Source: Candidatus Latescibacterota bacterium (GTDB lineage: Bacteria; Latescibacterota; UBA2968; UBA8231). From it: 64,000 nt of DNA. This document shows, one piece after another, positions 3,974-30,579 of the stretch. The stretch lies in NCBI GenBank assembly GCA_965217585.1, contig OZ244561.1, forward strand, positions 5,664,001 through 5,728,000, read 5' to 3'. The notes below the pieces were generated by a model. The model was not told where the DNA came from. It made no database searches and saw only the letters and a list, made by a program, of their open reading frames with translations. A program made the translations under genes and the position numbers. Numbering within the stretch: position 1 is the stretch's first letter; every line of letters starts with the position of its first letter.

Positions 3974-4144
3974 GGTGCCTCCTATGGCATCGGTCGCCCC
4001 GGCTGGCGTCGAGCCGCCGCAAGCGACGCGGAGCCATAGTATATCGAACCGCGCTTCTCCCTCCAATCCGCGCTTGCCTCTTGCACATTGCCCTTGTTAT
4101 TTAGAGGCACGCCCACCAACCGCGCACCCACTGGAGGAAAAGCA

Positions 4145-10775: not shown

Positions 10776-12347
10776 TCATCGACGGCGACGGGAAGCTCTG
10801 CGCTGCTGCGGACAGTCACTGAAGTCCCGGCGCGGGTCCTGGCTGACCACATCTGGATAATAGAGCGGCTGGTCCGCTTCTACCAGCATCCCGTCTCCAC
10901 GCATGATCTGGTTAGACGTTCGGGGCTTTATCCGGCTCGGATACTGCTTGTGATATTGCGCACTTTCCCGCCTAGTCGACTCTATGACTTCCTCAAAATC
11001 AAAGCCATCAAAGAGCGCGGACTTGAGTTTCTCCAGTTCGGCGGCCATCTCCCCTGTGGCGCGGCCTACCAGATTGCGCTGCTCGTGCGGATCGTCCATC
11101 AGGTCGAAGGCCAGATCCTCGCAGGTGTGGAAGGCGATGTACTTGTAGCGCTGCGAGCGGATCATGCGGTATCCTTTGCCCAGGTGTCCGACGATGACGC
11201 CGGGGCGCGCTGCCAGAGCCGGGCAGGCATCGCCCCGCCCCGCCGGCGCCAAGTCGATGCCGTCCAGACCGTCGAGCAGAGGCGCGTCGGTCAAGCCACA
11301 GAGCGTGGGGAAGATATCGGCCAGGCTCACCGGCGCGGCGATTTCAGCTGGCGAGAGCTGGCCCCTGCGGTGCTCCGGCAGGGAGACGATCAGCGGCACC
11401 CGAACAGAAGCTTCGTGCCAAGTCTGTTTCCACCACAGGCCGTGCTCTCCAGCCAGTTCGCCGTGGTCCGAGGTGTAGACGATGACGGTGTTGTCGAGCA
11501 GCCCGTCGCGCTCCAAGACCGCTAAAAAGTCCCCTATGATCTCGTCCAACTGGTCTACGCAGGCAACGTATGCCGCCCGGGCGCGCAGGGTCTGGTCCGC
11601 GGTGATCTCTTCGGCGGGATGCCCCTGGGACTCGCCACTATCCGACCTCAGAGCTTCCAAGGTCATGGGGTGGTCCTCGGCGTCCCCGCTGCGGCCCACC
11701 CGCGGCGGAGTGACCCCTTCGGGGTAGTAGCGCTCGAAAAAGCGGCGGGGTGCGTTCATCGGGAAGTGCGGGTGAACGAACGAGGTGTACATCAACCAGG
11801 GCTGGTCCGGGTGGGCGTGGCGGTGTTCGCGCAGCCACGCCGTGGCCTCGCGCACGACAAACTGCTCCTGGAACAGGGATTCGGGGATATCGCTGAGACC
11901 GGCATCCTCAATGATGGAGGGCATGAAGATGTGATCCTGGATCCCGGGCAGAAAAAGTGGGTCTTTCTGATGGCCTGGCGAGGGCGCGTCAAAATCGCCG
12001 TAGGGGCGGGCCCCGAAACCGGCGTACTGACGGGAGCCCCGCAGGTGCATCTTGCCGACGGCGGCCGTGGCGTAGCCGTGCTGCCCTAGGTGCGAAGCAA
12101 AGGTAGGGGTGTCAGGCCACAGGACCGGGCAGCGATGCGGGTGCCGGCCGGACAGCATCGACATTCGGCTGGGCGTACACAGGGGCATCTGGCAATAGGC
12201 AGTTTCGAAGTGGACGCCCTGCTGGATGAGACGGTCAAGCGTCGGAGTGCGGCAGGGTTCGCCGCCGCGCTCCGGAGAGCGGGCCGAGAGGAAGCGAAAA
12301 CTGTGTTCATCGCTGAGGAGAAAGAGGATATTGGGGCGATTGGGCAT
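10776..12347 (-). CDS. Sulfatase (formylglycine-dependent, choline-sulfatase-like)
   Basis: AGGAG SD before ATG 12347. Motifs PNILFLLSDEH, CTPSR (CxPxR), GKMH, SDHGE. Confidence 0.92.
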   Translation of the reverse strand: MPNRPNILFLLSDEHSFRFLSARSPERGGEPCRTPTLDRLIQQGVHFETAYCQMPLCTPSRMSMLSGRHPHRCPVLWPDTPTFASHLGQHGYATAAVGKMHLRGSRQYAGFGARPYGDFDAPSPGHQKDPLFLPGIQDHIFMPSIIEDAGLSDIPESLFQEQFVVREATAWLREHRHAHPDQPWLMYTSFVHPHFPMNAPRRFFERYYPEGVTPPRVGRSGDAEDHPMTLEALRSDSGESQGHPAEEITADQTLRARAAYVACVDQLDEIIGDFLAVLERDGLLDNTVIVYTSDHGELAGEHGLWWKQTWHEASVRVPLIVSLPEHRRGQLSPAEIAAPVSLADIFPTLCGLTDAPLLDGLDGIDLAPAGRGDACPALAARPGVIVGHLGKGYRMIRSQRYKYIAFHTCEDLAFDLMDDPHEQRNLVGRATGEMAAELEKLKSALFDGFDFEEVIESTRRESAQYHKQYPSRIKPRTSNQIMRGDGMLVEADQPLYYPDVVSQDPRRDFSDCPQQRRASRRRR

Positions 12348-12394
12348 GGGTATAGCTCCTGTAGAAGTTAGATCATCGCTTGGGCAAAACTCCA

Positions 12395-12426
12395 TAAAAA
12401 ATAAGCCCCTGATTGCTCAGGGGCTT
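12395..12426 (-). terminator. Intrinsic terminator downstream of tRNA-Val
   Basis: Hairpin AAGCCCCTGA-GCAA-TCAGGGGCTT followed by ATTTTTT on the minus strand. Confidence 0.8.
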
Positions 12427-12432
12427 GTAAAG

Positions 12433-12509
12433 TGGTGGGCGATCCCAGACTCGAACTGGGGACATCCTGCTTGTAAGGCAGGCGCTCTGACCAACTGAGC
12501 TAACCGCCC
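12433..12509 (-). tRNA. trnV: tRNA-Val(TAC)
   Basis: Reverse complement GGGCGGTTAGCTCAGTTGGTCAGAGCGCCTGCCTTACAAGCAGGATGTCCCCAGTTCGAGTCTGGGATCGCCCACCA: cloverleaf, anticodon TAC, encoded CCA. Confidence 0.97.
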
Positions 12510-12640
12510 GGCCTCTAAGCATAGCAATTCCGGCCCTTGCGTGCAAAACGAACGCCGTCCATTTGGCACTGTTGACCTCCTGCCCTAGAATTAAAATTCG
12601 CGCCAATGCAATGGCCGACGCGGATTAGCAAGAATACGAC

Positions 12641-13658
12641 ATGACCAATGCCACGCACACCCTGCTGCTCCCCAACCAAGTTGACGAGGCCCTCGCCGCG
12701 CACTTTGCCGCGCTCGGCGTCGGCACAATCGCCGCCTACAAGCTCTGGTGCCACCGGCACGGCCTGAGCACGGCGCTGGACAAAACGCCGCAAGAGCGGG
12801 CCGAGGAGCGGGTGCTCTTCGCCTCGTTGCAGCCATCGGTAGATCCAGCAGCCAGCAAAGAGCACGACCCGCGCCGCGCCGCGCCGACTCGCTATAGCAT
12901 TAGCGGCCAAGTCGTCGATCAGACCGCGTATCTGTCGGAAGTGGCCATCTATCTGAGCGGGAGTGTGCAAGACACGGTGTGGACGGATGCCGAAGGCCGC
13001 TTTGCATTTGCAGATCTCCCAGAGGGTCGCTATCGGCTGATACCGTTCAAGGACGAGCATCTGTTTTTCCCGCCCGAGCAGGCGGTTGTCCTTTCGGGCG
13101 AAGACGCGGTTGGGGTGGAGTTTGTCGAGGTTTTTGCGGTGCTGGCGGTGGCGGTGGAGCGCTTGGAGGTGGACGGGACGCCGCAGACGACTGTGGTGGA
13201 GCTGACTAACAGCGGGTTGGGTCGGTTGATCTGGCAGGTGCGGCACTCGGCGGCTTGGCTGTCGGTATCGGGTGCGGAGTTCGACGGGGTGGTAGAGGAA
13301 CGGGCGGATGGGTCGCTGGCAGGTCAGGGGGCGGGCATGTTGACGGTCGAGACGTCAGGAGCGGGGTTGGCTGCGGGGGCGTATGCAGACACGCTGTATG
13401 TGCAGTCCAATGGCGGCGAGGTGGCTATCCCCGTCAACGTTGACAGACGGGTTCAGGTCTGCACGCGATCCTGTATGGACGCCCGCTGGAAGCCGGATCC
13501 TGTTTTCAGCCGCTGTCGTCTCCGAGTCTAACCCTTTTTCTCCTTTTTCTAGACATATCTTTTCTATTAGTAGTGATGGTTTTGATGTTAGCGATTTGAC
13601 TGAAGACTTCAGCCCTAGCGGCCAACACTTCTTACCTGCCGTGTCCTTGTCGCCATAA
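12641..13658 (+). pseudogene. Chimeric relic: N-terminus resembling PcfJ-domain proteins, then Cna-B/carboxypeptidase-regulatory-like and BACON-like domains, then an out-of-frame TolB/PD40 fragment
   Basis: AYKLWCHRHG...DKT start; abrupt switch at ~12885 to YSISGQV...TDAEGRFAF...G.Y.L.P; LTNSG...W....WLSV BACON-like segment; another frame from ~13440 reads DPVWTPAGSRILFS. No signal peptide despite extracellular-type domains. Confidence 0.55.
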
Positions 13659-13725
13659 TTGAGGCCAAAACGGGGAACGGAGAAAACGAAAAATCGTGCA
13701 TAATAAACGGATGCGATCATCGCGC

Positions 13726-16263
13726 ATGACTTTCGCAAGCCCTAGACTCGTGCTGCTGTCCATCCTGATCCTGGCCAGCGCGCTTTCCGCCCAAGAAGGC
13801 GAGGGCTACCGCCTGCTGTTCAACCAAGTGCGCGTCGATAGGCCCGCGCATTGGCAGGCTTGGGACGCACCTACCGGGGTGCAGGTGGTGCGCGCCGACG
13901 GCACGGTTGAGCCGCGCTTTTTGCGCCGTGGGATAGAAGTGGCGCAGAACGCCCCCGACTTTACCTACGTCAGCGCCTTCGCCTCTGAGGACACCTTACA
14001 GGGCGGGATCTACGCAGTAGGCACGAGCCAGCGCCAAGCCTTTTTCGTTCTCGACGGCGATCCCAATACCTACTGGGAGCCGCAGCGTACCAGCTCGCTG
14101 GATCATTGGTTTTTGGAAATTGATCTCGGTCGTGCGGTGATCGCCCACCGCGTAGTACTGCGCTTTGTCGCCGCAGGGCAGGGCGACCCTTTTTTGAAGT
14201 TCAGGGTAATGGCCTCGGACGGGTTGCGCTGGGGGCAGGGGCGCGACCAGCGGCGGCGGTTCTTCCGCGTCGGCTTGGAGACCAAGCCCAACAAAGACCA
14301 GCGCGAATACGCCTTCGACATCGCGCCCGACCGGCAGGTGCCCGAAGGCGTCGAGGGCGAGATCGTCCAATTTTTGCGCATCGATGTGCTCGACACCGAT
14401 GGGCCGCGGGCCGAGGAGATCAGCGCGGGAACCTACGCATTCTTGGCGGAAGAAGATCGGGGGGCTATCGATCATTTTCGCGTCACCGCCGCCGGCCGCG
14501 AGATTCTCGTCGCTGAGCGCGACTACTTCGACCTGCCTAGTCAGGAGCGCGGCCCGGTGCGCTACTACCGCCACGAGCGGCCCCGCCTCGCCGAGGTCGA
14601 GGTTTTCTCCCTTGGCGAGAACGTGGTACAGCTAACCCAGAGCGGGATTGGGCGCGGCGCTGACGAGCGCGGCTTTGATTTCCTGTTCCGCAGAATCTTC
14701 TCCGACGGCCTGTATAGCTCGGGGTTCAACATGCCGATCTACGATCCGGTGGCCAATGAAAAACAGCTCAAAATTGACCTCGGTGCCAAGTACTGGCTCG
14801 ACCGCATCAAGTTGCTCGCGCCGGCCGACGAGATGCCACCGCTGGCCTATCAACTGCGGATGTCGGACGGGGCACTCAGTCCCAACGGCGAGCGGATCTG
14901 GACCACCTTTGGCGAGCGGCGCAACCTCAGCAGTTACCAGCACTTGGAGGAGACCTTTCCCCTACAGGAGGTGCGCTTTATCGAAGTGCGCCATCTCGAA
15001 TACAACCCCAATGAACAGGTTGAGGGTTACCTGAGCGAAATCCAGGCCTATGGCGAGGGTTTTGTCTCCGAGGTGGAAATGACTTCGCCCTTTATCCCGC
15101 TCGACCGGCCGCGGCTGTTTGCGGCAGTCGAGTGGGAGGGGAAACAACCGCCGGGCACCCGGATTGAGGTCCGCACCCGCTCCGGCGAGGAGATCGTTGA
15201 AGTCCCTCACTACTACGCCACCACCGGCCGCGAGATATCCAAGGAAATGTGGGAACTGCTGTCTGAAAACCGCCGGCCGCCGGTGGTCATCGAGCAGGTC
15301 GCCGGGCCGAGTTGGAGTAACTGGAGCACTATCTATGAGGCTGCGGGCGTGCCCTTTAAGTCGCCGAGTCCGCGAGCCTTCGTGCAAGTGCAGATCAAGC
15401 TGCGCTCCCGCGAGCCACTCCGGGCGGCGAGGATCCGCGATTTGCGTCTGCGCTTCGAGCCGCCGCTGGTAGATAAAATAGTGGGCGAGATCTGGCCCGT
15501 GTGGCAGGTCGAGCCGGGGGTGGAGCAAGACTTTGTGCTCTACTTGCGGCCCGAATTCGCCGTCGGCAACCCAGGCTTCGACCGGCTGCGGCTGCACTCA
15601 TCCTCGGCCGCACCAATCGAGTTGCTCTCGGTGCGCTCGGGCAGGGATACCGCATTGCGCGGCGGGGGCGGGCGGAGGTTGTGGCCGGGCGAGTTAGTTT
15701 TGGAACAGGGGAGGGAAGGTGAGGTCGAGCTGATTTTTCCCGAGCCGGTCTTCCGCGGTAGTTCTATCTACGAGATCAAATTCCGCACCAAAGTCTTTTT
15801 GCAAAGTACGACCTTCACCGCCGAGTTGGAGCAGGTAAGCCAACCGGGCCGGGTGCAATTGGTCAGCGACGGAGATGCCTCAAGTCTCGTTTCTAGTCAG
15901 TCGCTGGTGGTGGTTTCGGATTTGGAGCGGACCCGGCTGCTAAAAGACGTGGCGGTGGTGCCCAAGGTTTTTACCCCCAATGGCGACGGAATCAACGACC
16001 ATACGGATATTGAACTGTCGATTTTTCACTTGGAGGGAACCAAGCAACTGCGGGTGGCGATCTACGATCTGTCGGGGCACAAGGTGCGCGATCTGTCGAG
16101 AGGCACCGAGCATCCCAGCGGCGAACGGCGCGTCGAGTGGGACGGCCGTGACGAGGTCGGCGCAGTCGTGTCACCGGGGATCTACCTAGTGCAGGTCGGC
16201 TTCGCTGCCGACAGCGGCGTGGCAGGGACACACGCGGCGAGTTTGGTACACGTGGCCTACTAA
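13726..16263 (+). CDS. Secreted discoidin-like protein with TPNGDGxND/FlgD C-terminal domain (family A, A1)
   Basis: Signal peptide from ATG 13726. Motifs WFLEIDLGRAV, IDLGAKYWLDRI, RTRSG...WSNWS...SPSPR, GEIWP, FTPNGDGIND; ends LVHVAY. Confidence 0.85.
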   Translation: MTFASPRLVLLSILILASALSAQEGEGYRLLFNQVRVDRPAHWQAWDAPTGVQVVRADGTVEPRFLRRGIEVAQNAPDFTYVSAFASEDTLQGGIYAVGTSQRQAFFVLDGDPNTYWEPQRTSSLDHWFLEIDLGRAVIAHRVVLRFVAAGQGDPFLKFRVMASDGLRWGQGRDQRRRFFRVGLETKPNKDQREYAFDIAPDRQVPEGVEGEIVQFLRIDVLDTDGPRAEEISAGTYAFLAEEDRGAIDHFRVTAAGREILVAERDYFDLPSQERGPVRYYRHERPRLAEVEVFSLGENVVQLTQSGIGRGADERGFDFLFRRIFSDGLYSSGFNMPIYDPVANEKQLKIDLGAKYWLDRIKLLAPADEMPPLAYQLRMSDGALSPNGERIWTTFGERRNLSSYQHLEETFPLQEVRFIEVRHLEYNPNEQVEGYLSEIQAYGEGFVSEVEMTSPFIPLDRPRLFAAVEWEGKQPPGTRIEVRTRSGEEIVEVPHYYATTGREISKEMWELLSENRRPPVVIEQVAGPSWSNWSTIYEAAGVPFKSPSPRAFVQVQIKLRSREPLRAARIRDLRLRFEPPLVDKIVGEIWPVWQVEPGVEQDFVLYLRPEFAVGNPGFDRLRLHSSSAAPIELLSVRSGRDTALRGGGGRRLWPGELVLEQGREGEVELIFPEPVFRGSSIYEIKFRTKVFLQSTTFTAELEQVSQPGRVQLVSDGDASSLVSSQSLVVVSDLERTRLLKDVAVVPKVFTPNGDGINDHTDIELSIFHLEGTKQLRVAIYDLSGHKVRDLSRGTEHPSGERRVEWDGRDEVGAVVSPGIYLVQVGFAADSGVAGTHAASLVHVAY

Positions 16264-18992
16264 TGCGGCGGGCGACGGTCCTCCTCCTGCTATGGGCATC
16301 CGTCGCCGAGGGCGACGATCTCCTGCACTGGGGTATTAGTAGGGTCTATACGTACGGCGAGACCTTTGAGATGGACTATGTCTCGCCGGCGATCCACAAG
16401 TGGTACGGGCCGCACTACTTGCCTGAGACCTATATGGCACCTTGGTACGACCAAGGAAGCAACTTCGCCCGTGACACATACCTGCGCTATATCAGCCTGA
16501 TCCTCGAAGGCGACGAGACCTACGACACCTTCGGCACACCCCTCGGCCGCGGCTGGCTAGTGTACAACTGGCAACAGGATCAGCCCGGCGCGCGCGGCAG
16601 CTTTATTGACAAGCGCGGCGGCGGCCTGTCCTCACTGGACCTGATGGCCAGTCGGCGGCCGGCCTACCGCGACTTCTTCAACCGCTTGGTCATCGTTTCG
16701 GACCAGCGCGGCGCGTCGTCGTACCGGCTGATGATCGGCGATGAGATCGCGACCCGCTTCACGCCGCTGACGTTCAACAAGCCGCGCTTCAATGGCGTGC
16801 GCCTCGACTACGCCGTCGAGCGCTACGAGGCCAGTCTGCTTTTGTCGCGGCCGAGCAATCCCGACGAGGAGGCACAGACCAACTCCACTACGGTGATGGG
16901 TAGCCACCTCGAATATCAGGCCGGGACAGGCGGGAATTTCGGGCTGACCTATATCAATGCCCACAACGTGCTGACGCAGGTGGAATTCAACGAGGGCAAT
17001 CCGCTGCACGGAATTCTGACTTCGCTGGAAAACCAGCCCCTCGACAAGCTGTGGGTCAGAATCAGGGACGACTCGCCCGGCCGCGGTGGCGTCGGAGCGG
17101 CACTGGCGGGTTTCGACATCGTCATGGTCGATACCAGTGGTCGCCAGCTAAGGGGGCGCGATATTGGCTTCCTGCCGCGGCGCGAGGGCGGTTTCGAGGA
17201 GGGGGGTCGGCTGTTTGCCCGCGACGAAGAGAGCATCTTGCTCGAATACGATATGGGCGGCCTCGACTTTGCAGACGTGCAGTCGGGCGACCTGCGCGAG
17301 GTGCAGATCGAACTCTCGCTGGCCAATGACTATAGGGTAGAAGTGGCCTCGGACTTGCAAACGGATGGCCAGCGACGCAATGCTGAGATCGTCTTTTTGC
17401 CCGTCGCCAGGGCCGCAGGCAACGTCCAAGACAACAGTAACACCAAGGTGGTGCGGCTCGACTATGGTCTGCCGACAGCCAGCGAGTTGATCGGCATCAA
17501 CTGGAATCTAAACGATTGGCAGGGCTTCTCGCTTTTGGGCGAGTTGGTGCTCAACCGCCGCTTTTCGCGCTACCCCAATCCCCATATCTCGGCGCACCAC
17601 GAGACCGTCGCCAGCGCCCACGCCGGCTATCTCAACGCGGCCTATCGCAGGGGCGCTTGGATGCTTTTCGGCGAAGGCTTTTCAATCGCAGACGACTACA
17701 GTACCCGCTACTGGCTCACCGACCGCAACGGTCGGATCAAGTTCAAAAACCCAGTGCCGCAGGTCTATGAGTTTGTCGATGACGACGACGACCGCAACGG
17801 CCTGACCGAGTGGGAGCGCCCCTTTTTCGTGCGCTGGGGCGGAATCACTGAATCAGTGACGGTCTCACCGACCAGCATCCGCTCGAACCAGCGCGAAGTG
17901 GCTTGGCCGGGTCTAGACGAGAACGGCGACTTCATCAACGACCACAACCAAAACAGAAACCTCTATCCCGACTACGAAGAGCCTTTCCTGCGCTACCGCG
18001 CCGACCGCCCCGAGTTCCTCTTCGGCCTCGACATGAACCACAACGGCGTCATCGACCGCTTTGAAAACGACCTCGTTCCCGATTATCCCTATAAGCGCGA
18101 CCACCGGGGATTCAACACCTACCTCAAGGCCGAGGTGGTGCCCGCGCTCGAGGTGAGCGTCGGGCGACAGGACATGCGGCTGGTCGCTGGCAACGGGCGG
18201 ACCCGCGCTTGGTATGTGCTAGGTGCTTGGCGCTACCGCTTCACCGGGGGCAGCCAGCTCCGGCTCTTTGAGTTCGGTGCCCGAGTGCGCGACGACATCC
18301 CCGACGATTTGCGGCAGTGGTTCCAGCCGTTGGGGGAACCGGGACGGATGATTGACCGGATCGACTTTTTGCCGGGACGGAACGCTTGGAAAAACTCGCT
18401 ATACCTCGACTTGGACCAACGCCTAGGGGCGCAGATAAGGCTCTTGCACCGCTTCAAATGGGATTGGGTCGAGCAGCAGGACCCGGCCGACGAGGTGCGG
18501 TTCCGGGAGGGCCGCAAGACCAGCGGATTCTTAGGCGCAATCAATAAAGTGGAGTGGAGTATCCCAGTGGGCTTGGGCGTCTTGGAGCCTCGTTTCAAAA
18601 GCGAGTTCCGCCGGGAGCGGCCCTTTAGCACGCGCTACTTAGAATTCACGAGCTTAGAGGAGACCTTCTTCCTGATATGGACGCAGCCGCTTTTTGCCGA
18701 GGCGGTGGGCATCAGCTACTTCCCCCGCTACGGCCGCCAGATATTCAACACCGAATTGCAGGTGGGGCTGGAAGTAGGCCGTCTGTGGCTTTTGGCAGGG
18801 AGGCGGGAGGAAGTAGATGCCGACTTCCTAGGCTGGACCGCGGTCGCTCAACTCAAAAACCGCACGGCCTATCAGGGGTATCAGCTAGTGACCACTACCG
18901 GTGTGCAGTTCCAACAGCGGCGTTTTGCCGGGCGGGTACCGCAGGAAGCGAGTTTGGTCTTTATGACATTGTACGCGGGGTTGAGCCAATGA
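16263..18992 (+). CDS. Large exported protein, predicted outer-membrane beta-barrel-like, with Asp-rich Ca-binding-like motifs (family B, B1)
   Basis: TAATG overlap with the upstream gene; signal peptide; DDDDDRNG, DENGDFIND, DMNHNGVID; amphipathic strand pattern in the C-terminal third; ends TLYAGLSQ. Confidence 0.7.
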   Translation: MRRATVLLLLWASVAEGDDLLHWGISRVYTYGETFEMDYVSPAIHKWYGPHYLPETYMAPWYDQGSNFARDTYLRYISLILEGDETYDTFGTPLGRGWLVYNWQQDQPGARGSFIDKRGGGLSSLDLMASRRPAYRDFFNRLVIVSDQRGASSYRLMIGDEIATRFTPLTFNKPRFNGVRLDYAVERYEASLLLSRPSNPDEEAQTNSTTVMGSHLEYQAGTGGNFGLTYINAHNVLTQVEFNEGNPLHGILTSLENQPLDKLWVRIRDDSPGRGGVGAALAGFDIVMVDTSGRQLRGRDIGFLPRREGGFEEGGRLFARDEESILLEYDMGGLDFADVQSGDLREVQIELSLANDYRVEVASDLQTDGQRRNAEIVFLPVARAAGNVQDNSNTKVVRLDYGLPTASELIGINWNLNDWQGFSLLGELVLNRRFSRYPNPHISAHHETVASAHAGYLNAAYRRGAWMLFGEGFSIADDYSTRYWLTDRNGRIKFKNPVPQVYEFVDDDDDRNGLTEWERPFFVRWGGITESVTVSPTSIRSNQREVAWPGLDENGDFINDHNQNRNLYPDYEEPFLRYRADRPEFLFGLDMNHNGVIDRFENDLVPDYPYKRDHRGFNTYLKAEVVPALEVSVGRQDMRLVAGNGRTRAWYVLGAWRYRFTGGSQLRLFEFGARVRDDIPDDLRQWFQPLGEPGRMIDRIDFLPGRNAWKNSLYLDLDQRLGAQIRLLHRFKWDWVEQQDPADEVRFREGRKTSGFLGAINKVEWSIPVGLGVLEPRFKSEFRRERPFSTRYLEFTSLEETFFLIWTQPLFAEAVGISYFPRYGRQIFNTELQVGLEVGRLWLLAGRREEVDADFLGWTAVAQLKNRTAYQGYQLVTTTGVQFQQRRFAGRVPQEASLVFMTLYAGLSQ

Positions 18993-20875
18993 GGGGCTGG
19001 CTGGGGATCGCGGCACTTGTGCTGCCAAGCGGCCTCTGCGGCCAGCCGGCGCAGACTTATGTGCTCGGTACCCAAGGCACCTCCGCTTGGAAAGTCGGCG
19101 GCGATGGCCTCAAACCCGAGCATGTACTCAACGCCCAGCTCGGCCAGCTCGAGTTGACTAACACACCGGGGGCGACCATCGACTTTGACTACCGGCCGGG
19201 CTGGATCGGACCGCTGCACTTCGACGAGGAGGTCAACATCGCCGCGCGGGTCCTAGAGTTCGGTTCGATTCAAGCGCCCAACGCCGGCCGCGGCCACGAG
19301 CGCCAGCTCGTGGGCACGGTCAACGGCGATCACCAAGTGGCCTTTGAGCGCAAACCGACGGTCTTCGAGCCGCGGGTGGCGACGAGGGGCATTTGGGTGA
19401 TCTTGGACTTTGTGGTGCCGGTGGGGGTGCGGCGAGTGCAGTTCTACCCGCGCAACACCGTGGTGGCGACGCCAGCGACGCCGTTCCACAACGATTTTCT
19501 GCGCGGCTACGAGTTGTGGCTCAATCAGTTTCCATCCGGCCAGCCCGATGTGCTGATCCAACGCGAGGCGCAAAACGAGGAGCCGGTCGTCGATGTAGCC
19601 GTCCCGCCGCAATACGCGCGCTTCGTCAAGATCAAATCGCTGGCCGATGTGCCTTTTGAGATTGACGAGGTCGAAGTCTATGGCACGGGCTTTCTGCAGC
19701 AGAGCCTCTATCTGTCCAATATCATCGACTTAGGCGACCGGTCCACGGTGGGCTTTGTCGAGTGGATTGAAGACCTCGTCGGCCATGCGGATTTTTCGCA
19801 CCTAAAGGTGCGGGTGCGGACGGGCACCGACCCCTCGCCGCTGGTCTATCGCGAATGGTTTTTCGACGCCGACGGCGTTCGCTCTTTCCGAGAGGTCAGC
19901 CGCGAGACCTACGTCGATTCGCTATTGCCAGCCGATCGCGGCGGCATCCGCGACGATACCGGGCACTGGAGCCCGTGGTTTGCGGTGCGAGTGGATGAGC
20001 TGGTGAGGGCGCCGACTCCACGCCGCTATATCCAGTTCCGCTTCGAGTTTGCGGGAGGGCTTTTCGCGACGCGTCAGGTTGACGAACTGCACTTTGAGTA
20101 CCTACAGCCGCCGCTGGCGGACTCGCTGCACGCCGAAGTCTTTCCGCGGCTGGCCGAGGCGGAAAAACCGGCGACTTTCCGCTACGCGGTGCGGCTGCGC
20201 TCCACGGGAGAGGTGCGCGGTTTTGACCGGTTAGAAGTCGATACCAATATCCTAGTCACAGCGGTACGCGAGGTAAAGCTCGACGGGCAGCCGTTCGACT
20301 TTGCGGTGGATTTTATCCGCGAGGATGGCTTTGGCTTCAACTTTCCCCTAGTCCACAGCGACGGGGCGGTGCTGGAGTTCACCTTCGATCTGCCGATTTT
20401 TCGCTTCGGCACCACCTTTTCGGGCCGTGCCTACAACAGCCGTGCGGGTACTGTGCCGCAGCGGTTGGTGCCGGGCGAGGCGACGGATTTTGGTCCGGGA
20501 GATTTTCCCGAGCTATCGAACCTCTCGGTGGCGATCCCCAAGGCGCAGATCGGCAAGTTGGTCGGCGAGATCGCGTTTGGGCCGCGCGTTTTTACGCCCA
20601 ATGGCGATGGGATCAACGATCATCTCGACGTGTTTTTCAACGTGTTGCAGCTAACGCGGCCCGCGCCGGTGCGCTTGGACTTGTTCGATCTATCGGGGCG
20701 GTTGGTGCATGAGGTGTTTGTCGCTGAGCGGGGGGTCGGTCCGGTAGAGGCGCAGTGGGACGGCCGGCTGGCGAATGGGAAAACCGCGTTGCCAGGGACC
20801 TATATTTGGGTGTTGCGGGTGCAGGCGGATGCGTTTGCGGAAGTGCATACCGGGACGGTGGGGGTGGCGCATTGA
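18989..20875 (+). CDS. Secreted family A protein (A2)
   Basis: ATGA overlap; signal peptide MRGWLGIAALVL. Motifs RVRTG...WSPW...PTPRRYIQ, AEVFP, FTPNGDGIND; ends TVGVAH. Confidence 0.85.
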   Translation: MRGWLGIAALVLPSGLCGQPAQTYVLGTQGTSAWKVGGDGLKPEHVLNAQLGQLELTNTPGATIDFDYRPGWIGPLHFDEEVNIAARVLEFGSIQAPNAGRGHERQLVGTVNGDHQVAFERKPTVFEPRVATRGIWVILDFVVPVGVRRVQFYPRNTVVATPATPFHNDFLRGYELWLNQFPSGQPDVLIQREAQNEEPVVDVAVPPQYARFVKIKSLADVPFEIDEVEVYGTGFLQQSLYLSNIIDLGDRSTVGFVEWIEDLVGHADFSHLKVRVRTGTDPSPLVYREWFFDADGVRSFREVSRETYVDSLLPADRGGIRDDTGHWSPWFAVRVDELVRAPTPRRYIQFRFEFAGGLFATRQVDELHFEYLQPPLADSLHAEVFPRLAEAEKPATFRYAVRLRSTGEVRGFDRLEVDTNILVTAVREVKLDGQPFDFAVDFIREDGFGFNFPLVHSDGAVLEFTFDLPIFRFGTTFSGRAYNSRAGTVPQRLVPGEATDFGPGDFPELSNLSVAIPKAQIGKLVGEIAFGPRVFTPNGDGINDHLDVFFNVLQLTRPAPVRLDLFDLSGRLVHEVFVAERGVGPVEAQWDGRLANGKTALPGTYIWVLRVQADAFAEVHTGTVGVAH

Positions 20876-23529
20876 TGGGGGAAAGAAGGTATCAATCGCT
20901 ATGGGGACTCCTGTTCCTGCTCCTACTCCCTCTGCTCCTCACCGCCCAAGACTACGGTGCTCGCCTCGGCACCGTCAAGCGCGGCGGCAAAGTCTCTTTT
21001 GAACCGCGAGGACCTGGCGTACTCTTCGACGCGCTCGATCCGGCCGTGCGCAAGTGGTATATCCCGCAGGAACTCTACACCGAATACCGCTGGAAGCAGT
21101 GGGAGTACTCCAACTACGCGCGCAACCTGTACCAGCGCTACGTGTCCACCTCGCTCGAAGGCAGCTATATCTACGATGTGTACGGCAACTACCTGACCCG
21201 CGGCTGGCCGATTTTCGACTGGCGGCAGCAAAACCCCCAGCCCTTTGGTTCGACCTTGGCCCAAGACGGGCGCTTCGCCGGTTGGTTCAACCAGTTACTG
21301 ATCGCCTCAGACCATAAAGGGCAGTACCACTACGCCATCACCATCGGCAGCCAAATCCGCACCACCCTGACGCCGATGACCTTTTCCAAACCGCGCTTCA
21401 ACGGCATCCAGTGGGACCTCCTATCCGACAAATACGCGCTTACCATGCTGCTGTCGCGGCTCAACAGCCTGACTGACGAGACCGGCTCGGGGATAGGCAC
21501 CTCGGAGAAGACCAACAACACCAGCTTAATCGGCAGCCGGTTGGAGGTGCAGGTCGGCGACTTCGTCAAGATCGGCGGGACGTACCTCAACGCGCACCAC
21601 GCACAGACCCAAACCGAGATATTCAATGGCAATATCCTCAAGGGCAACCTCACTGGGGTGCAGAATTTGACTAATGTCAGCTTCATCGAAGTAGTCATTA
21701 AAGACGATTCGCCTGAAGACGGCGAAGCTGGCGGCGCACTCTTCGCACAGGACATCGTCATCTGGGATCTGGAGGGCAAGCCTACGCGCGGCTCGGAGCT
21801 CGGCTTCCGGCCGCTGGTGGAGGGCGGGTTCCAGCGCCGAGGTTTTCTCGCCGCCGACGGGCGCGAGGAGATCCGCCTGCGCTACGATTTCCAAGACCGC
21901 TCCTACACCGGGCCGCCCCCCAGCGAAATTCAGCGGGTGCAGATCGAACTGGTGCTAGCCAATGATTACCTAGTCGAGATGGCCTCTGATCGCCAGACCG
22001 ACTTTCGGGAGCGGGTTGTGACGGTGCCGGTGGCGCGAGCGTTGGGCAATGTCAAGGACTCGTCCAACCAGCAAGTGTTGGCCCTCGATTACGGGCTGCC
22101 CACCGCCAACCAGATCGCCGGCTTCACCCTCGAGTTGACCGATCTTGAGGGCTTCAACACCTACTTTGAAGTCGCCGCCAACCATCAGTACCGACAATAT
22201 CCCAACCCCAACCTCGAAAAGCACCACGTCGCCAGCGGCGAGGCCGAGGCCTGGATGCTCAACGTCTCCAAGACCGCCTATCCCTACTTCGCGCTGTTGG
22301 AAGCCTTCGACATCGCCCCCAATTACCAGACCGGGTTTCAGGTCGTTGACCGCAACGGCATCGTCGATTACGCGAACCCGTTGCGCTTCTTTGAATTCGT
22401 CGAAGATAACGACGATCAGGACCGCTTCCCCGACTGGGCGCGGCAAGGGTCCCCGAGAGACCGCCAGATCTTTCCCGGCTGGGACGAAAACAACGACCTG
22501 ATCTCCGACTTCAACCAAAACGACACTCCTTCAAGCCCCAACCGAGTACCCGACTACGAAGAGCCTTTCCTGCGCTTCCACACCGACCGGCCGGAGTTCC
22601 TCTACGGCATCGACCAAAACCACAACGGCTGGATCGACCGCTTTGAAAACGACGAGGAGGCCGACCTGCCCTACCAGCGCGACCGCAAGGGCTACAATCT
22701 GTACGTCGGTGCCTTTCTGCACCCCGATCTGCGGGCGACCGCAGGCCGCCAGCGGCTCGCGCAGCACTCCGACCACCGCCGCGCCCACGCCGATTACCTG
22801 ATGCTGGCCGGGGACCACTACTTCACCGGCTGGGGGCGGGCACGGGTTTTTCAGGACCTGCGCCGCGTCAAAGACGATATCTTCGACCACCTCGTGCAAT
22901 GGACGCAACTACCCAATACCCGAGGCGAACTGGTGCCGACCCCAGACGTGCTGCCGGCGCAGAACACAGTGGTCAATACTACTTGGCTGGGTTTTGACTT
23001 CGACCGCTGGCCCGGTTTTAAGTTCGTCAACATGTTCAAGTGGCAGTACTACCACCAGCGCGATCCAAGCACTGCGCTGCTGTTGCGCGGACAGCGCGAG
23101 GACGGCTCGTTCCTCGGCCTGATCAACAAGGCCGAGTACCGGCTGCAGCTAGGCAAGCTGACCTTGAGCCCGGCCTGCAAAAGCGAGTTCCGCCGCGAGG
23201 TCCCGGTACTCCGCGGCCAGCCCGAGCGCAAGGAGTGGAGTCAACTCCTGCTCGCCGTCGGGCGCATATCCGTCCTGCGCAGCAGCTACTTAGAGGCTGG
23301 GATCGAGTACCACAACTTCCGGCAGTTGCGCGAGCCGCCGCCGCCGGGGGCCGAAGACAGCTTCTCGGAGACGACGACGGTCGCCCAGTTGACCAATATC
23401 TCCGACTACCAGGGTTATAAGTTGACGACGGTGTTGGGGTTCGACGTGACCCGGCGCTACCAAGAGGTCGAGGGGACGCGGACGCGGACGAGGGGGTTTC
23501 TCACCGTGTACGCGGGAGTCGAGCAATGA
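20875..23529 (+). CDS. Family B protein (B2), paralog of B1
   Basis: TGATG overlap; signal peptide. Shares KWY.P, TP.TF.KPRFNG, DYGLPTA, PDYEEPFLR...DRPEFL.G.D.NHNG.IDRFEND and a terminal YAG with B1. Confidence 0.75.
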   Translation: MGERRYQSLWGLLFLLLLPLLLTAQDYGARLGTVKRGGKVSFEPRGPGVLFDALDPAVRKWYIPQELYTEYRWKQWEYSNYARNLYQRYVSTSLEGSYIYDVYGNYLTRGWPIFDWRQQNPQPFGSTLAQDGRFAGWFNQLLIASDHKGQYHYAITIGSQIRTTLTPMTFSKPRFNGIQWDLLSDKYALTMLLSRLNSLTDETGSGIGTSEKTNNTSLIGSRLEVQVGDFVKIGGTYLNAHHAQTQTEIFNGNILKGNLTGVQNLTNVSFIEVVIKDDSPEDGEAGGALFAQDIVIWDLEGKPTRGSELGFRPLVEGGFQRRGFLAADGREEIRLRYDFQDRSYTGPPPSEIQRVQIELVLANDYLVEMASDRQTDFRERVVTVPVARALGNVKDSSNQQVLALDYGLPTANQIAGFTLELTDLEGFNTYFEVAANHQYRQYPNPNLEKHHVASGEAEAWMLNVSKTAYPYFALLEAFDIAPNYQTGFQVVDRNGIVDYANPLRFFEFVEDNDDQDRFPDWARQGSPRDRQIFPGWDENNDLISDFNQNDTPSSPNRVPDYEEPFLRFHTDRPEFLYGIDQNHNGWIDRFENDEEADLPYQRDRKGYNLYVGAFLHPDLRATAGRQRLAQHSDHRRAHADYLMLAGDHYFTGWGRARVFQDLRRVKDDIFDHLVQWTQLPNTRGELVPTPDVLPAQNTVVNTTWLGFDFDRWPGFKFVNMFKWQYYHQRDPSTALLLRGQREDGSFLGLINKAEYRLQLGKLTLSPACKSEFRREVPVLRGQPERKEWSQLLLAVGRISVLRSSYLEAGIEYHNFRQLREPPPPGAEDSFSETTTVAQLTNISDYQGYKLTTVLGFDVTRRYQEVEGTRTRTRGFLTVYAGVEQ

Positions 23530-25077
23530 GATGCGTGCTCTGGGCAGCGCTTTTGTGGCTGGGTTGCAGCAGCGAGCGCCCACCCCTCCAACCCCCAATC
23601 TCAGACGAAGAGCCGATCTTTGACCATAGCACCTTCGCGGACGCGAGGTTGGAACGAGCGGTGCGGCAGGCGCTGCGACAGCCACAAGGAGGCTTGGAGA
23701 GCGAGGAGCTATCTGGGTTGCGAACTCTGGATGCGGGCGGCTATGGGATCGCGGATGTCGAAGGGATTGAACGACTGAGGGGCTTGGATACCCTGATGCT
23801 GGGCGATAATGCCGTGGTGGATATTGGCCCGCTCGCCCGATTGACCCGGCTACAAGTGCTCGACCTGTCTAACAATCAGATCGCCGACCTCGCGCCGCTG
23901 GCCAACCTCCTACTGCTAAGGGCACTCAACCTCGACGGCAACCAAGTAGCAGACCTCGCGCCGCTAGCGCGGCTGACGCGGTTGGGTCTGCTCAACCTCG
24001 ACGGCAACCAAGTCCGCGATGTTTCGGTGCTGTCGCGGCTCCGGCGCTTGCACAGCGTCGAGCTGTCGGGCAACCCGCTCGACCTAGACCAAGTGGAGAC
24101 CCTGCGCGGGCGAGGGAGGGCGGGGGATGGAGGTGACCTTTTTCCTGCCGGGGATTTTCTTCCAAGACGCCCAACTAGAGCAGGCGGTGCGCAGTGCGGT
24201 CAGGAAGCCAACCGAAGAGCTGACGGCGGTGGATCTGCACGCGATTACCCGCCTGAGACTCAACAGCTCGGTCAAGTCGCTGGAGGGCATTGAGCAGCTA
24301 ACCAACTTGGAAAGCCTGAGCTTTAGCGGCTCTACCAGCGAGGGCGAATTGGAGAGCCTGTTGCCGCTGGCGGACCTGAGCACGCTGCACGTCCTCCAAT
24401 TGACGACGGCCAAGATCGAGGATATTCGCGCGCTATCCCGACTGACGAGCCTGGAAAAGCTCAACCTCAGCAACAACGCCATTGCGGATATTTCGCCGCT
24501 GGCCGGCTTGGTCAACCTGCGCGAATTGTGGCTAGATAAGAACCAGATACAAGACCTCGCGCCGCTGGCCGAGCTCCGCCGACTGGAGATACTATATCTC
24601 GCGGAGAATGCAGTCGAAAACCTTGCGCCGCTGGCCGAGCTAGACCGGCTGGCAAAGCTGCGCTTGTCCCACAATCGGGTGGCGGATATTTCGCCGCTGG
24701 CCGAGCTGCACGCCCTACAACAGCTCGCATTCACCAACAACGCCGTGGCCGAGATCTTGCCCTTGGGTGGATTGTACTTACTCGAAGACTTGGACTTTAC
24801 TGCCAACTTGGTCAGTGACCTCAGGCCGCTTACCGATAAGCCACACCTGACGGCTTTGTCCTTTGGCCAGAACTTCGTCGAAGATATCTCGCCGCTGGCC
24901 GGTCTCCCCGAACTCAGACGCCTGCGCCTGCCGGACAATAAGGTAGTGGATGTCGCTGCGTTGCTAACGCTGGAGAAGCTGCTCTCGGCCGACCTGCGGG
25001 GCAATCCACTCAGCGCGGCCAGCATTGACCTGATCGCTGCGCTCATAGAGAGCAGCAACCGCAGGATCACCTTCTGA
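23526..25077 (+). CDS. Internalin-like leucine-rich-repeat lipoprotein split into two frames (23526-~24116 and 24127-25077)
   Basis: Lipobox WLGC; 22-aa LRRs (L..L.L..NQI.DL.PLA.L); two F.DA.LE.AVR caps; +1 frame change at the G-tract 24108-24126. Confidence 0.8.
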
Positions 25078-26978
25078 TGAGGCTGCGCCTCTGCATCTGG
25101 CTGGTTGCGTTGAGCGCCGGTCCGGCTTGGCCGCAGTTGGAATTGGTGGTGGGCCGGGAGGGGCTCTCTTACCTAGACATCCAGGACTCTGTGGTCTTCG
25201 TCAACAAAGCACCTGATTCGCTGTGGACATGGGCGGTGACGCCGGGCGAGAATCTGATGGCCAACGCCCTCTCGCGGGGTGGGCAGATTTTGATCTCGGT
25301 CACGGAGCCTACCCTAGGTTCTTTGGCGGAGACGATTGAGTGGCCCGTGTTCCGCCGCGATATAACCGCGGTGCAGGCCATTGCCGATGGCGACCGAGGG
25401 ACGGCCTTTGACCCCGATGAGTTTGGGTTGAGCCGCCAAGCGTCCATTTACATCGACTTGGGTGGGGCCTATACCATCGTGCGGACCAGGGCGTTCCCGC
25501 GCCTCGACGCCGAACACATCGGGAACTTTCCGCAGACTTTTGACCTGGGGTTGGGCGACCGACTACAGCCGGTCAATGCCTTGGAACGCCTGTTGACAGC
25601 TAACGACTATCCCGCCGCCGAAAATCTCGGCGGCGAGATCAGGTTCCAACGCTATGTGTTCTTTGGCACTACCCGGCCCAATATCCGTGCGATTATCGAA
25701 TGGCCGGGCGTCCTCCCAGTCAGCGGCCAGCGCCAAGCGCGCTACGTGCGCTTCCAGCCTCTAGGCGACGTGCCCTGGGAGTTGGCCGAGCTGGAGCTCT
25801 ACACAGACGGCACGACACCGCCGGGTTTTTTTCGCTCGGTCCCGCTATTGGCCAGCACCGGGACGCCGGTGTGGGGACGGCTGCGCCACGAGGGCGGCGC
25901 GCCGTTGGAGGAATTGCCCATTGTAGTGCAGACGCGCACCGGCCCGGACGACGAGCCAGAGCATTACTTCATCACTCAGGGGCCAGAAGAGATCCGGGTC
26001 AATCGAGCCGTCTGGGAAAATGCCCCCGAGTTCCCAGGCATTGGCCAAGGGCCGGTCGTGTCCAACCCCGACTGGAGCGGCTGGGAGACGGTCACCGGCG
26101 GGGTGGTGCGCTCGCCAAGTCCGAATCGCTTTTTGCAATTCCAAGTGCGCTTTTTGCAGCCGGGCGTCAAGTTAGAACGACTCGTTTTCGAGTACTCTTC
26201 GCCGCCGGTCGCCGGCGAGATCTACGCCGAAATCAGCCCGCCGCTAGTCAATGCTGGGGTGGAGACGGCCTTTGTGGCGATCATGCAGACGCGCCGTCTC
26301 GCGGGGAGGTCGGACACCGGCTTCCGTTTGGTCGAGGTGCTGACCTCAGCCGGGATTGCGGGCATTGACAGCGTCAAGGTAGATGACGAGCACGCGCTGT
26401 ACACTCTGCGCTTAGATCCCGGGCGCGGATTTGCCGTAAACCTCTGGCAGCGGGTGCTAAAGGACGGCAGCCTCGTGCATATTTTCTTTCGCGGCAAGGT
26501 CTTTGTCGATGGGACGCGTTTTGAGGTGCGCGCAGTCGAGCAGCGCCACGTCTTGGATGAAGCACCCTACGAGACGTTCCAGTACGCACGCGAAGCAGAT
26601 GTAGATCCGGTGCTGCCGGGTGCGGGTCTGACGGTGCGCCTCTCCGCGTCAAACGCTGCCCTCATCGCCGATGTAGAGTCGGCGCAGCGGGTGCTGACGC
26701 CCAACAACGACGGAGTCAACGACCTGTTTGCAGTCGCCTATAGCTTGCTCAAGCTGACGCGACCGGCGGCGGTCTTCTTTCGCATCTATGATTTGGGAGG
26801 TGGCTTGGTGCGCCGGGGCTATGCCGGTGAGGACCAGAGCGGACGCTTTGCCCAAGTCTGGGATGGGCGCGACGATTGGGGCAGGCTAGTCGCACCGGGG
26901 ATGTACCTCTATCACCTCCAGGTCGCAGCCGATGTCGGCACCACGCGCTACAGTGGCATAGTCAACGTGGCGTACTAA
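25077..26978 (+). CDS. Secreted family A protein (A3)
   Basis: TGATG overlap; signal peptide. Motifs YIDLGG, QTRTG...WSGW...SPSPNRFLQ, AEISP, LTPNNDGVND; ends IVNVAY. Confidence 0.85.
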   Translation: MRLRLCIWLVALSAGPAWPQLELVVGREGLSYLDIQDSVVFVNKAPDSLWTWAVTPGENLMANALSRGGQILISVTEPTLGSLAETIEWPVFRRDITAVQAIADGDRGTAFDPDEFGLSRQASIYIDLGGAYTIVRTRAFPRLDAEHIGNFPQTFDLGLGDRLQPVNALERLLTANDYPAAENLGGEIRFQRYVFFGTTRPNIRAIIEWPGVLPVSGQRQARYVRFQPLGDVPWELAELELYTDGTTPPGFFRSVPLLASTGTPVWGRLRHEGGAPLEELPIVVQTRTGPDDEPEHYFITQGPEEIRVNRAVWENAPEFPGIGQGPVVSNPDWSGWETVTGGVVRSPSPNRFLQFQVRFLQPGVKLERLVFEYSSPPVAGEIYAEISPPLVNAGVETAFVAIMQTRRLAGRSDTGFRLVEVLTSAGIAGIDSVKVDDEHALYTLRLDPGRGFAVNLWQRVLKDGSLVHIFFRGKVFVDGTRFEVRAVEQRHVLDEAPYETFQYAREADVDPVLPGAGLTVRLSASNAALIADVESAQRVLTPNNDGVNDLFAVAYSLLKLTRPAAVFFRIYDLGGGLVRRGYAGEDQSGRFAQVWDGRDDWGRLVAPGMYLYHLQVAADVGTTRYSGIVNVAY

Positions 26979-27050
26979 TGACGGCTTGCGGTAGCGATTA
27001 CTCTTGGATTTTGCGCTTGTGGACCGATAAGGTAAGGTTGGTGCAGAAGG

Positions 27051-27084
27051 TCCGTAGGGACGGCTTGCGAACCGCCCCTACGGA
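27051..27084. repeat. GTAG-type REP-like palindrome or bidirectional terminator between convergent genes
   Basis: TCCGTAGGGACGG-CTTGCGAA-CCGCCCCTACGGA imperfect hairpin. Confidence 0.65.
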
Positions 27085-27094
27085 CGAGGCGCGA

Positions 27095-27928
27095 TTAACG
27101 GATACCCGTTGAAAGCAGCGATTTGATCCGTCCCCACAACTGGGCTTCGACGCTCGTAGCGGAAGAGGGCGCCGGTCGCCAAGCGGGCCAGTTTCCGCCC
27201 AAGCCGTCGGTCAATTCGACCAAGTTGCTCCCGTCTATATTAACTACCCAGATCTCAAATTGGTCGCCCAAACTGGAACCAGAAGAAAAGGCTATTCTCA
27301 TGCCGTCGGGTGCCCAAGTGGGGTTTACATCTATGTTAGGTCTGTAGGCTAGAGGAGTAAGGGTCAGGGGATCAAACGCCTGCTCGAACTCGCTGGTATC
27401 GCGGATATAGATGTCAAACTGGCCCTCGTCCCGCAAGGCGAACACTTCTTTAGTCCCATCCGGGGAAAGGTTGGGTTGGTTATGGGGTGCCTCCCTCCGG
27501 TCCACGGGTATCGGGTTACTTCCATCTACCACTACGGCAAACGTCTCAACACCATCCCTCGGATCCCCCGTAGGCAGCGTGTCATAGTAGATTCTACTCC
27601 CGTCTTCAGACCACGAAAGTATCACTTTTTGGACTGAATCGTCTGTCACCGGTTGCTGATTGCTGCCGTCGGTGTCCATCAACCAGATTTCATCGTCGCC
27701 AAAGTCGATATAGGCGATCTTCATGCCATCCGGGGACCAAGCCGGGCTAGTGCAATACCGTCCTTTGGTTAGATTTATAGGATCGCTCCCATCCGCATTC
27801 ATAATCCAAATGTTGGGGCCCCCCTCGCGATCGGAGACAAACGCGATTCTATCCCAGTCCTGCCCCCAGCCATCAACGGCCAGCCCCAGCGTTGCCAAGC
27901 AGACGATCAGTATGGATCGATAGTTCAT
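27095..27928 (-). CDS. Secreted TolB-like/PD40 beta-propeller protein with C-terminal WGxIK tag
   Basis: Signal peptide; IAFVSDR, PAWSPDG.KIA, PTWAPDG repeats; ends TSVEAQLWGRIKSLLSTGIR. Confidence 0.85.
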   Translation of the reverse strand: MNYRSILIVCLATLGLAVDGWGQDWDRIAFVSDREGGPNIWIMNADGSDPINLTKGRYCTSPAWSPDGMKIAYIDFGDDEIWLMDTDGSNQQPVTDDSVQKVILSWSEDGSRIYYDTLPTGDPRDGVETFAVVVDGSNPIPVDRREAPHNQPNLSPDGTKEVFALRDEGQFDIYIRDTSEFEQAFDPLTLTPLAYRPNIDVNPTWAPDGMRIAFSSGSSLGDQFEIWVVNIDGSNLVELTDGLGGNWPAWRPAPSSATSVEAQLWGRIKSLLSTGIR

Positions 27929-30550: not shown

Positions 30551-30579
30551 TTCACCCCCTCCAGATTCTGGTGCCCTCG

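Follow-up and report, generated by a model that had tools for sequence, protein, structure and literature searches.

A six-gene operon of secreted binding-type proteins and large predicted outer-membrane barrels in a Latescibacterota-type genome

The region analysed is a 64-kb window, positions 5,664,001 to 5,728,000 of contig OZ244561.1, in a single-contig, 7.32-Mb genome of Latescibacterota type with a G+C content of about 62%. At 13726-26978 of the window, the list of open reading frames (ORFs) gives six plus-strand genes in the order A1-B1-A2-B2-LRR-A3 (Table 1). A and B stand for two recurring kinds of protein, and LRR for a leucine-rich repeat lipoprotein. The best explanation of this operon is that it is a cassette of a lineage-specific cell-surface system in Latescibacterota-type bacteria. 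The original prediction, which had been made from the letters of the DNA, took the overlap of every junction as a sign of stoichiometric co-production. All five overlaps are where it placed them (TAATG at 16261-65, ATGA at 18989-92, TGATG at 20873-77, ATGA at 23526-29 and TGATG at 25075-79). Overlapping junctions are frequent in operons, so the overlaps alone are unremarkable. The conserved gene order described below is a stronger signal.

Table 1. Genes of the operon, followed by neighbouring features of the window (positions are those of the window).
Feature	Position	Strand	Remarks
A1	13726..16263	+	845 aa; longest frame from GTG 13696
B1	16263..18992	+	909 aa
A2	18989..20875	+	628 aa
B2	20875..23529	+	884 aa; paralogue of B1
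LRR lipoprotein gene	23526..25077	+	LRR_4 matches; reading frame interrupted in window
A3	25077..26978	+	633 aa; type IX secretion-type C-terminal domain
Small upstream protein	12641..13531	+	296 aa; 165-195 nt before A1
Type IX secretion-type-tail protein	1-1578	+	
Type IX secretion-type-tail protein	1670-4066	-	
WD40-repeat protein	7577-10699	+	1040 aa
Sulfatase	10776-12395	-	
GH130/GH32-like protein	29570-30583	-	

From sequence and modelling, the A proteins appear to be secreted, non-catalytic chains of beta-sandwich domains that end in a C-terminal domain (CTD) of a type IX secretion system (T9SS) kind. In A1, a signal peptide is followed by a discoidin domain, further beta-sandwiches and the T9SS-type CTD. 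The discoidin domain scores 36 bits with the Pfam model F5_F8_type_C, above the cut-off of 28.2. Two Pfam models, each with a cut-off of 27 bits, match the tails of A1, A2 and A3: CHU_C at 30.8, 34.9 and 31.5 bits and FlgD_ig at 29.5, 27.6 and 28.6 bits, respectively. CHU_C (PF13585) is the model of the type-B T9SS C-terminal signal domain. An AlphaFold2 model of A2, made with 48 relatives, has a predicted local distance difference test score (pLDDT) of 91.1. It lays out the protein as a CBM32 fold, a second beta-sandwich, an immunoglobulin-like domain and the T9SS-type CTD. Residues 78-236 of the model superpose on the CBM32 domain 4a42_B (Z 15.8, root-mean-square deviation (rmsd) 2.0, 123 of 126 residues), and residues 521-628 superpose on the CTD of PorU (6za2_B, Z 12.1). 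There is no enzyme fold among the structure matches to the A2 model. Membership in CBM32/F5_F8_type_C is therefore indicated by Pfam score for A1 and by structure for A2, and sugar binding is a prediction. As candidate T9SS cargo, the A proteins have both a match to a curated CTD model (CHU_C) and, in the A2 model, a match to the PorU CTD fold. A module of the form RTG...WSxW...P[ST]P is invariant, or nearly so, across alignments of 48 and 40 A relatives. The architecture first described for A, with a discoidin-like domain, this RTG...WSxW module and a FlgD tail, is thus borne out by Pfam, by the alignments and by the A2 model.

The original prediction recognised B as neither PorP/SprF nor SusC. 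Aligned end to end (891 columns), B1 and B2 share 38% identity, and neither has a Pfam or NCBIfam family match at E<=0.01. Among 7999 candidates scored, 295 proteins are homologous to B at E<=0.001; all of them are without Pfam domains and are called 'hypothetical' where they are named at all. Clustered at 50% identity, a set of 1.84 billion proteins contributes 606 representatives to the family. A profile of B run by hmmsearch against all PDB sequences stayed at chance level, the best match being a restriction-enzyme subunit at E 0.01. An Atlas search with B returned only its own family. The nearest Atlas cluster with a Pfam family is DUF6029 (score 0.89), which is a lead only. Our literature searches on Latescibacter(ota) secretion and polysaccharide use found no publication on the B family or on these cassettes. 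The placement of B outside characterised families has therefore held up against the family models and the profile searches.

The fold of B is known from a model. AlphaFold2, given 73 sequences, produced a B1 model with a pLDDT of 83.8 and a predicted TM-score (pTM) of 0.83, and the secondary-structure string of that model contains about 24-26 long strands. The strands are interrupted by a beta-sandwich insert at about 240-394 and again by a stretch at about 477-613, which is rich in Asp and Asn, has no regular structure and holds a canonical 12-residue EF-hand-like loop. All of the 50 VIA-align matches listed for B1 are membrane beta-barrels, mitochondrial ones included, and nearly all are from the bacterial outer membrane. 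The top ones are SlpA (Z 14.1), AlgE (12.8) and Wzi (12.2). By Foldseek the best match is MtrB (E 2.9e-8, TM 0.27/0.35), with SlpA second; BamA, ushers, LptD and SprA are among the other structural matches. No single known barrel stands out from these model comparisons as a specific relative of B. SlpA, MtrB, LptD and the ushers are the best structural matches and belong to the same barrel size class, but their TM-scores do not exceed 0.35, their identities are 5-11%, and B has neither an SLH domain nor a cytochrome or LptE-type partner. The model and the two structure searches agree with the earlier view that B is a barrel, and a soluble fold was not seen. On present modelling and family searches, B is a predicted large outer-membrane barrel of an unnamed family.

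Two exclusions made in the original prediction, that B is not PorP and has no TonB plug, also hold as sequence tests. PorP/SprF models (PF11751, TIGR03519) do not match B1 or B2, nor any of 46 relatives at E<=1. The Plug domain is not matched in B1, B2 or the 46 relatives either; that model does pick up 25 other genes of the genome. In VIA-align, SusC and further receptor chains align with B1 only at Z 8.2-9.3, below many unrelated barrels.

The position of SlpA at the head of the VIA-align matches brings up one alternative, in which B is a structural outer-membrane or S-layer-base protein, distantly akin to SlpA of Deinococcus-Thermus, and A is a coat that decorates it. The superposition on SlpA (7zgx_A) covers 380 aligned residues at an rmsd of 6.1, and 10 of the 46 B relatives touch the SlpA_C model (PF21620) at E<=1. 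These contacts reach at best 30.2 bits against a cut-off of 35 and span only model positions 232-308 of 656, and neither B1 nor B2 matches SlpA_C. No SLH domain was found, and 80 diverged paralogues accompanied by variable lectins are unlike a single lattice protein. We regard this role for B as very improbable.

The fifth gene needs a correction to the assembled sequence. The A-B-A-B-LRR-A layout of the original prediction stands as to gene order, but the LRR frame is broken in the window into two frames of 255 and 316 aa. Relative to the orthologous loci L012 and L011, the window carries 10 extra bases near 24108-24123 that split the gene, and the LRR orthologues are a single 511-aa frame. 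Contigs of three DNA runs (X1, X5, X7) are without the 10 bases; the X1 contig, 1560 bases long, has no other difference from the window. The frame break is therefore probably an assembly (consensus) error. That the gene is a pseudogene, or two genes, was rejected after this check against the runs. The two LRR halves match LRR_4 in Pfam at 95.2 and 121.8 bits, and the N-terminus has the lipobox-like motif LWLGC. The internalin models of NCBIfam match only far below their cut-offs. The product appears to be one lipoprotein with two internalin-like LRR domains, to be called an LRR protein rather than an internalin.

Beyond what was originally noted, the genome contains about 53 such cassettes, this operon among them. 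Paralogues were counted by phmmer in a naive six-frame ORF set, so a few fragments are included. B1 finds 80 ORFs. The combined total for A1, A2 and A3 is 205: in 152 the match extends across more than half of the query, and in the other 53 it is confined to the tail or another part; A1-class paralogues number 62 and A2-class paralogues 83. The B genes and full A genes add up to 566 kb, or 7.7% of the genome. The A-type CTD is found at the end of 252 ORFs, including 150 of the 152 A-family proteins. There are 53 same-strand gene runs containing B, which we call cassettes; the operon thus belongs to a system of very large extent in the genome.

Within the genome, 49 of the 80 B genes follow an A-type gene: 21 follow an A2-class gene, 21 an A1-class gene and 7 an A gene with the tail only. 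The remainder are preceded by another B (20), by something else (7) or by a gene on the opposite strand (4). In a tree, the 77 full-length paralogues of B separate into two deep clades, of 25 and 52 members. The B genes that come after a tail-only A are all in the 25-member clade (7/7), and those after a class-1 or class-2 A are in the 52-member clade in 41 of 42 cases. The first and second barrels of tandem cassettes fall into separate clades; for B1 of the window, as for B2, the sister is the barrel in the same position of another cassette, at 3.63 Mb (L092). It follows from the sister positions and the clade pattern that cassettes duplicate as units and that A type tracks B clade. This tracking is consistent with cognate pairs; linkage alone would also yield it.

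The cassette at 3.63 Mb (G000 3629001-3645000, minus strand) is a paralogous operon in which the genes run A3-A1-B-A2-B and then a thioredoxin-like gene; no LRR gene was seen in its ORF list. The members of the 25-member B clade are mostly found in tandem B-B-B arrays after a tail-only A, followed by TPR (tetratricopeptide repeat) proteins of about 1090 aa; examples are at G000 3752202-3760726 and 7034310-7042853.

Conservation is distributed unevenly along both proteins. Among 79 A2-class paralogues, mean identity is highest in the CTD (39.4%), and the CBM32 domain, at 28.8%, ranks with the most variable parts. Among the 77 B paralogues, the Asp/Asn-rich core is 61.1% identical against 27.9% for the strands of the C-terminal barrel. 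The Asp/Asn-rich blocks, already described as highly conserved, are in fact the most conserved part of B. A conserved A tail and a conserved Asp-rich B core, together with variable CBM32 domains and variable strands, would fit a common docking arrangement carrying diversified heads.

Gene order in other genomes was examined in 79 loci, nearly all from metagenome-assembled genomes of Candidatus Latescibacterota or Gemmatimonadetes/-ota. L012, at 91% identity, is the closest of them. The complete order A1-B-A2-B-LRR-A3 is found in 16 of the 79, and 13 more have A3 in front, so that by a count of the listing A3 closes the operon in 16 orthologous loci and opens it in 13 others. Where the upstream flank of a B gene can be tested, an A gene ends at the B start in 93 of 106 cases. 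Some of the 13 exceptions are second tandem barrels or projection errors. The linkage of A and B elsewhere, which the original prediction had made a point on which it could fail, is thereby confirmed, and the distributions of A and B are largely shared.

A survey of 151 genomes of the phylum as defined by GTDB sampled 14 GTDB families. B is found in 94 of the 151 genomes (63/63 in family f1, 0/30 in f2 and 0/19 in f3), and the A2 type in 82. Both A and B are present in all 63 sampled genomes of the family to which the window belongs. In 11 of the 14 families A and B agree in being found or not found; f7, f8 and f10 differ. SprA occurs in 143 of the 151 genomes, and this includes the B-less families (29/30 in f2 and 19/19 in f3). 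Therefore, T9SS works without B, and B would be an add-on and not a core part. By these matches, the phylum has a general T9SS, to which A and B seem to be added jointly.

The genome of the window has T9SS core genes alongside A. SprA_N matches a 2153-aa frame at 80.3 bits, PorU is found at 627.5 bits (cut-off 420), and a PorV-like gene adjoins PorU at 153.8 bits, below the cut-off of 250. Since SprA, PorU and the PorV-like gene are present, the analogy drawn at the outset with the type-B-CTD cargo of Bacteroidota is apt. PF11751 (PorP_SprF) and TIGR03517 (GldM) have no match in the genome, but control genomes are equally silent with both models, so absence is not shown for either.

The same survey bears on whether B might do the exporting itself, as a dedicated SprA-independent secretion pore of usher or two-partner type for which the CTD of A is a recognition element or plug. 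B has the size of ushers, LptD and MtrB, all represented in the Foldseek and VIA-align results; the order of A and then B is strict, and SurA-like chaperone genes lie inside cassettes. One genome, G015, is 96% complete and has B matches without a match to SprA_N. On the other side, of the 94 genomes with B, 88 have SprA too, and among the six without it five are only 64-80% complete. The A tail resembles T9SS signal domains, many cassettes have several A genes for each B, and Pfam scans of B, the 46 relatives included, found no POTRA or usher domains. We judge a dedicated pore improbable.

A closer precedent exists in Bacteroidota. In PMC12618676, Flavobacterium johnsoniae is described as commonly having a porP/sprF-like gene directly 3' of a type-B-CTD gene, and secretion of its type-B-CTD cargo as requiring the cognate downstream gene. 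Cognate cargo and PorP/SprF pairs given in that paper and PMC9143113 are SprB-SprF, Fjoh_3952-Fjoh_3951 and PG1035-PorP. B occupies the corresponding place directly downstream of a gene with a type-B CTD, as that place is described in PMC12618676, in 93 of 106 cases elsewhere and 49 of 80 in the genome. Further likenesses to the PorP/SprF systems are that the secreted, CHU_C-type A is encoded directly upstream of a barrel gene, that pairs are repeated and duplicate as units, and that SprA, PorU and a PorV-like gene are present. B differs in its length of about 900 aa, its 24-26 or so strands, its sandwich insert and its Ca-loop-like region, whereas the PorP/SprF models have about 270-290 positions. 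The scale is different too: in contrast to the 12 type-B substrates of F. johnsoniae, there are 80 barrels and 152 cargo proteins here, and outside Bacteroidota. By sequence comparison B is placed outside PorP/SprF; it is not filed there because the sequence test failed and because of the threefold difference in size.

Our favoured reading, which we put forward tentatively, is that B may serve as the cognate partner in the membrane, receiving or anchoring A lectins delivered by T9SS. The A proteins would be exported by Sec and then cross the outer membrane through SprA-PorU-PorV. B, encoded directly after A, would take A over or hold it at the surface, much as PorP/SprF-like proteins do with the type-B-CTD cargo of Bacteroidota. 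The CBM32 domains, which are variable, would then face outwards and form a large, diversified set of binding modules, to which the LRR lipoprotein may add an accessory binding subunit. We infer the secretion of A by T9SS, the contact of A with B, the exposure at the surface and the class of ligand.

Several observations weigh against this assignment. TIGR04131, the model of the type-B sorting domain, has a cut-off of 35 bits but gives A1 only 21.4 and A2 22.7, with no match in A3. In family f10, B is present in 13 of 13 genomes and an A2-type protein (E<=1e-30) in only 1 of 13. The occurrence of SprA in families that have no B has been given above. Direct evidence for contact between A and B is absent; a complex prediction for B1 81-909 with the linker and CTD of A1 (700-845), both entered as alignments and run without controls, gave a score of 0.00 and a mark of 0.32 and counts neither for nor against such contact. 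In size B exceeds PorP/SprF threefold, and it shows no sequence relation to it. One-to-one pairing of A and B is not general, since many cassettes have two or three A genes per B and some A clusters have no B. Finally, an anchor-only model leaves unexplained why 15 cassette genes code for a membrane protein with 12 helices, DUF6785/DUF6784.

This last protein is one of several accessory families that are enriched near B, given that only 17% of the genome lies within 10 kb of a B gene. Within that distance are 36 of 78 DUF6785/DUF6784 paralogues, 33 of 47 SurA-like peptidyl-prolyl isomerases (PPIases), 41 of 51 members of a family of about 310 aa (one member has a CBM9-like domain) and 22 of 25 lipoproteins of about 258 aa. 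TPR proteins also recur in cassettes. None of the accessory families (DUF6785, SurA-like and the others) lies within 20 kb of the operon of the window, and enzyme genes that recur inside cassettes were not found. For DUF6785/DUF6784, the nearest Atlas clusters are called peptide/OPT transporters (score 0.79, a lead only), and we found no mention of DUF6785 in the literature.

An example of the DUF6785/DUF6784 gene is at L090:17608-19620 (G000 720608-722623). Near it, at L090:15784-17535 (G000 718784-720538), is an example of the SurA-like genes, which encode a double PPIase and are often directly downstream of B; 47 is an unusual number of periplasmic chaperones. A B-B cassette also contains a gene for a 286-aa protein (L091:6373-7230; G000 245170-246030, minus strand) that scores weakly with PorV/PorQ (44.5 bits against a cut-off of 90) and with PorP/SprF (21 bits). 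The genome has 12 paralogues of it; the L091 copy alone is near B.

These accessory genes are part of the ground for the main and serious rival, a SusCD-like capture and uptake system. B would be a channel, the A lectins would bind substrate at its mouth, T9SS would merely deliver A, and in many cassettes the DUF6785/DUF6784 inner-membrane protein would carry the product into the cell. The likeness to SusC/SusD lies in a large barrel gene beside a surface binder, in carbohydrate-binding-type domains, and in a massive expansion that occupies a large part of the genome. No other outer-membrane protein family here is as large as B: its 80 members compare with 25 Plug-domain receptors and a single SusD-like gene. 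Cassette proteins include CBM32, CBM9-like and BACON-like domains, and the crowding of DUF6785/DUF6784 genes with their transporter lead, and of SurA-like chaperone genes beside B, points the same way. Unlike SusC, B has no match to the Plug domain or to any TonB-dependent receptor family, and no energy-coupling part was seen. Unlike SusD, which is a helical lipoprotein, A is a chain of beta-sandwiches with a T9SS tail. In contrast to SusC/SusD loci, the binder gene comes first and the barrel second, no enzymes recur and there is no sulfatase link. The window operon itself has no accessory gene of these kinds nearby. We think it rather unlikely that uptake is the role of B, and less likely again are the dedicated pore and the SlpA-like role.

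The sulfatases deserve separate mention. It had been argued that surroundings rich in sulfatases and oxidoreductases were consistent with surface display, or capture of glycans or solutes, by cognate pairs of barrel and ligand-binding protein. Genome-wide, 8 of the 50 sulfatase genes have a B gene within 10 kb, where 8.5 would be expected, so the argument from sulfatases fails, and the count speaks against uptake as well. Cassettes as sulfatase-linked polysaccharide utilisation loci are rejected on the same count. What stands of the proposed display or capture machine is the barrel, its lack of a known family and the linkage of A and B.

The anchoring of A by B and uptake through B are not mutually exclusive. 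The most far-reaching reading would be that Latescibacterota have a plug-less import machine for glycans or peptides, assembled by T9SS and replacing SusCD, in which B, a giant calcium-loop barrel, is the channel, interchangeable CBM32-bearing A proteins are substrate-binding lids docked by their CTDs, DUF6785/DUF6784 performs the inner-membrane step, and dedicated SurA-like proteins fold the barrels. We consider this reading unlikely.

The ends of the operon are not defined by a scan for promoters and terminators. Over 12400-27400 there are 3 promoter-like sites against 3.3 expected, which is chance level, and 18 terminator-like sites against 13.7 expected, in a scan that we judge to be at chance level. 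Membership of the small upstream protein in the operon is uncertain. It has a weak CarboxypepD_reg match (33.2 bits, cut-off 32.3) and a sub-threshold one to BACON_2, has just 3 homologues in the genome, and precedes the operon in only one of the 79 loci, the closest, L012. A metatranscriptome run (X21) has no contig at least 99% alike to the region, 7 at 95-99% and 29 at 90-95%. Contigs that are 90-99% alike come from relatives, and this run was rejected as evidence that the operon is transcribed.

The operon is flanked by a sulfatase and a GH130/GH32-like protein, both on the minus strand. The WD40-repeat protein farther upstream has 11 WD40 stretches and a local G+C content of 0.564 against about 0.62. 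At the left end of the window are two further proteins with T9SS-type tails and no adjoining B gene; one has a FlgD_ig match of 42 bits, and the other is A-like, 797 aa long, with F5_F8_type_C and CHU_C.

Latescibacterota are uncultured, widespread degraders of organic matter. A genome analysis of 2015 assumed non-specific porins (PMC4454575). The A-B pairs are probably the main cell-surface binding machinery of this bacterium. Together with A, the B family takes 7.7% of the genome, and yet B is absent from Pfam and NCBIfam. If B anchors T9SS cargo, it would be a second, unrelated solution to cargo handling outside Bacteroidota; if it imports substrate, it would represent a new principle of uptake across the outer membrane. 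The roughly 80 barrel-lectin modules per cell are defined targets for proteomics, for structures and for transcriptomics of the response to substrates.

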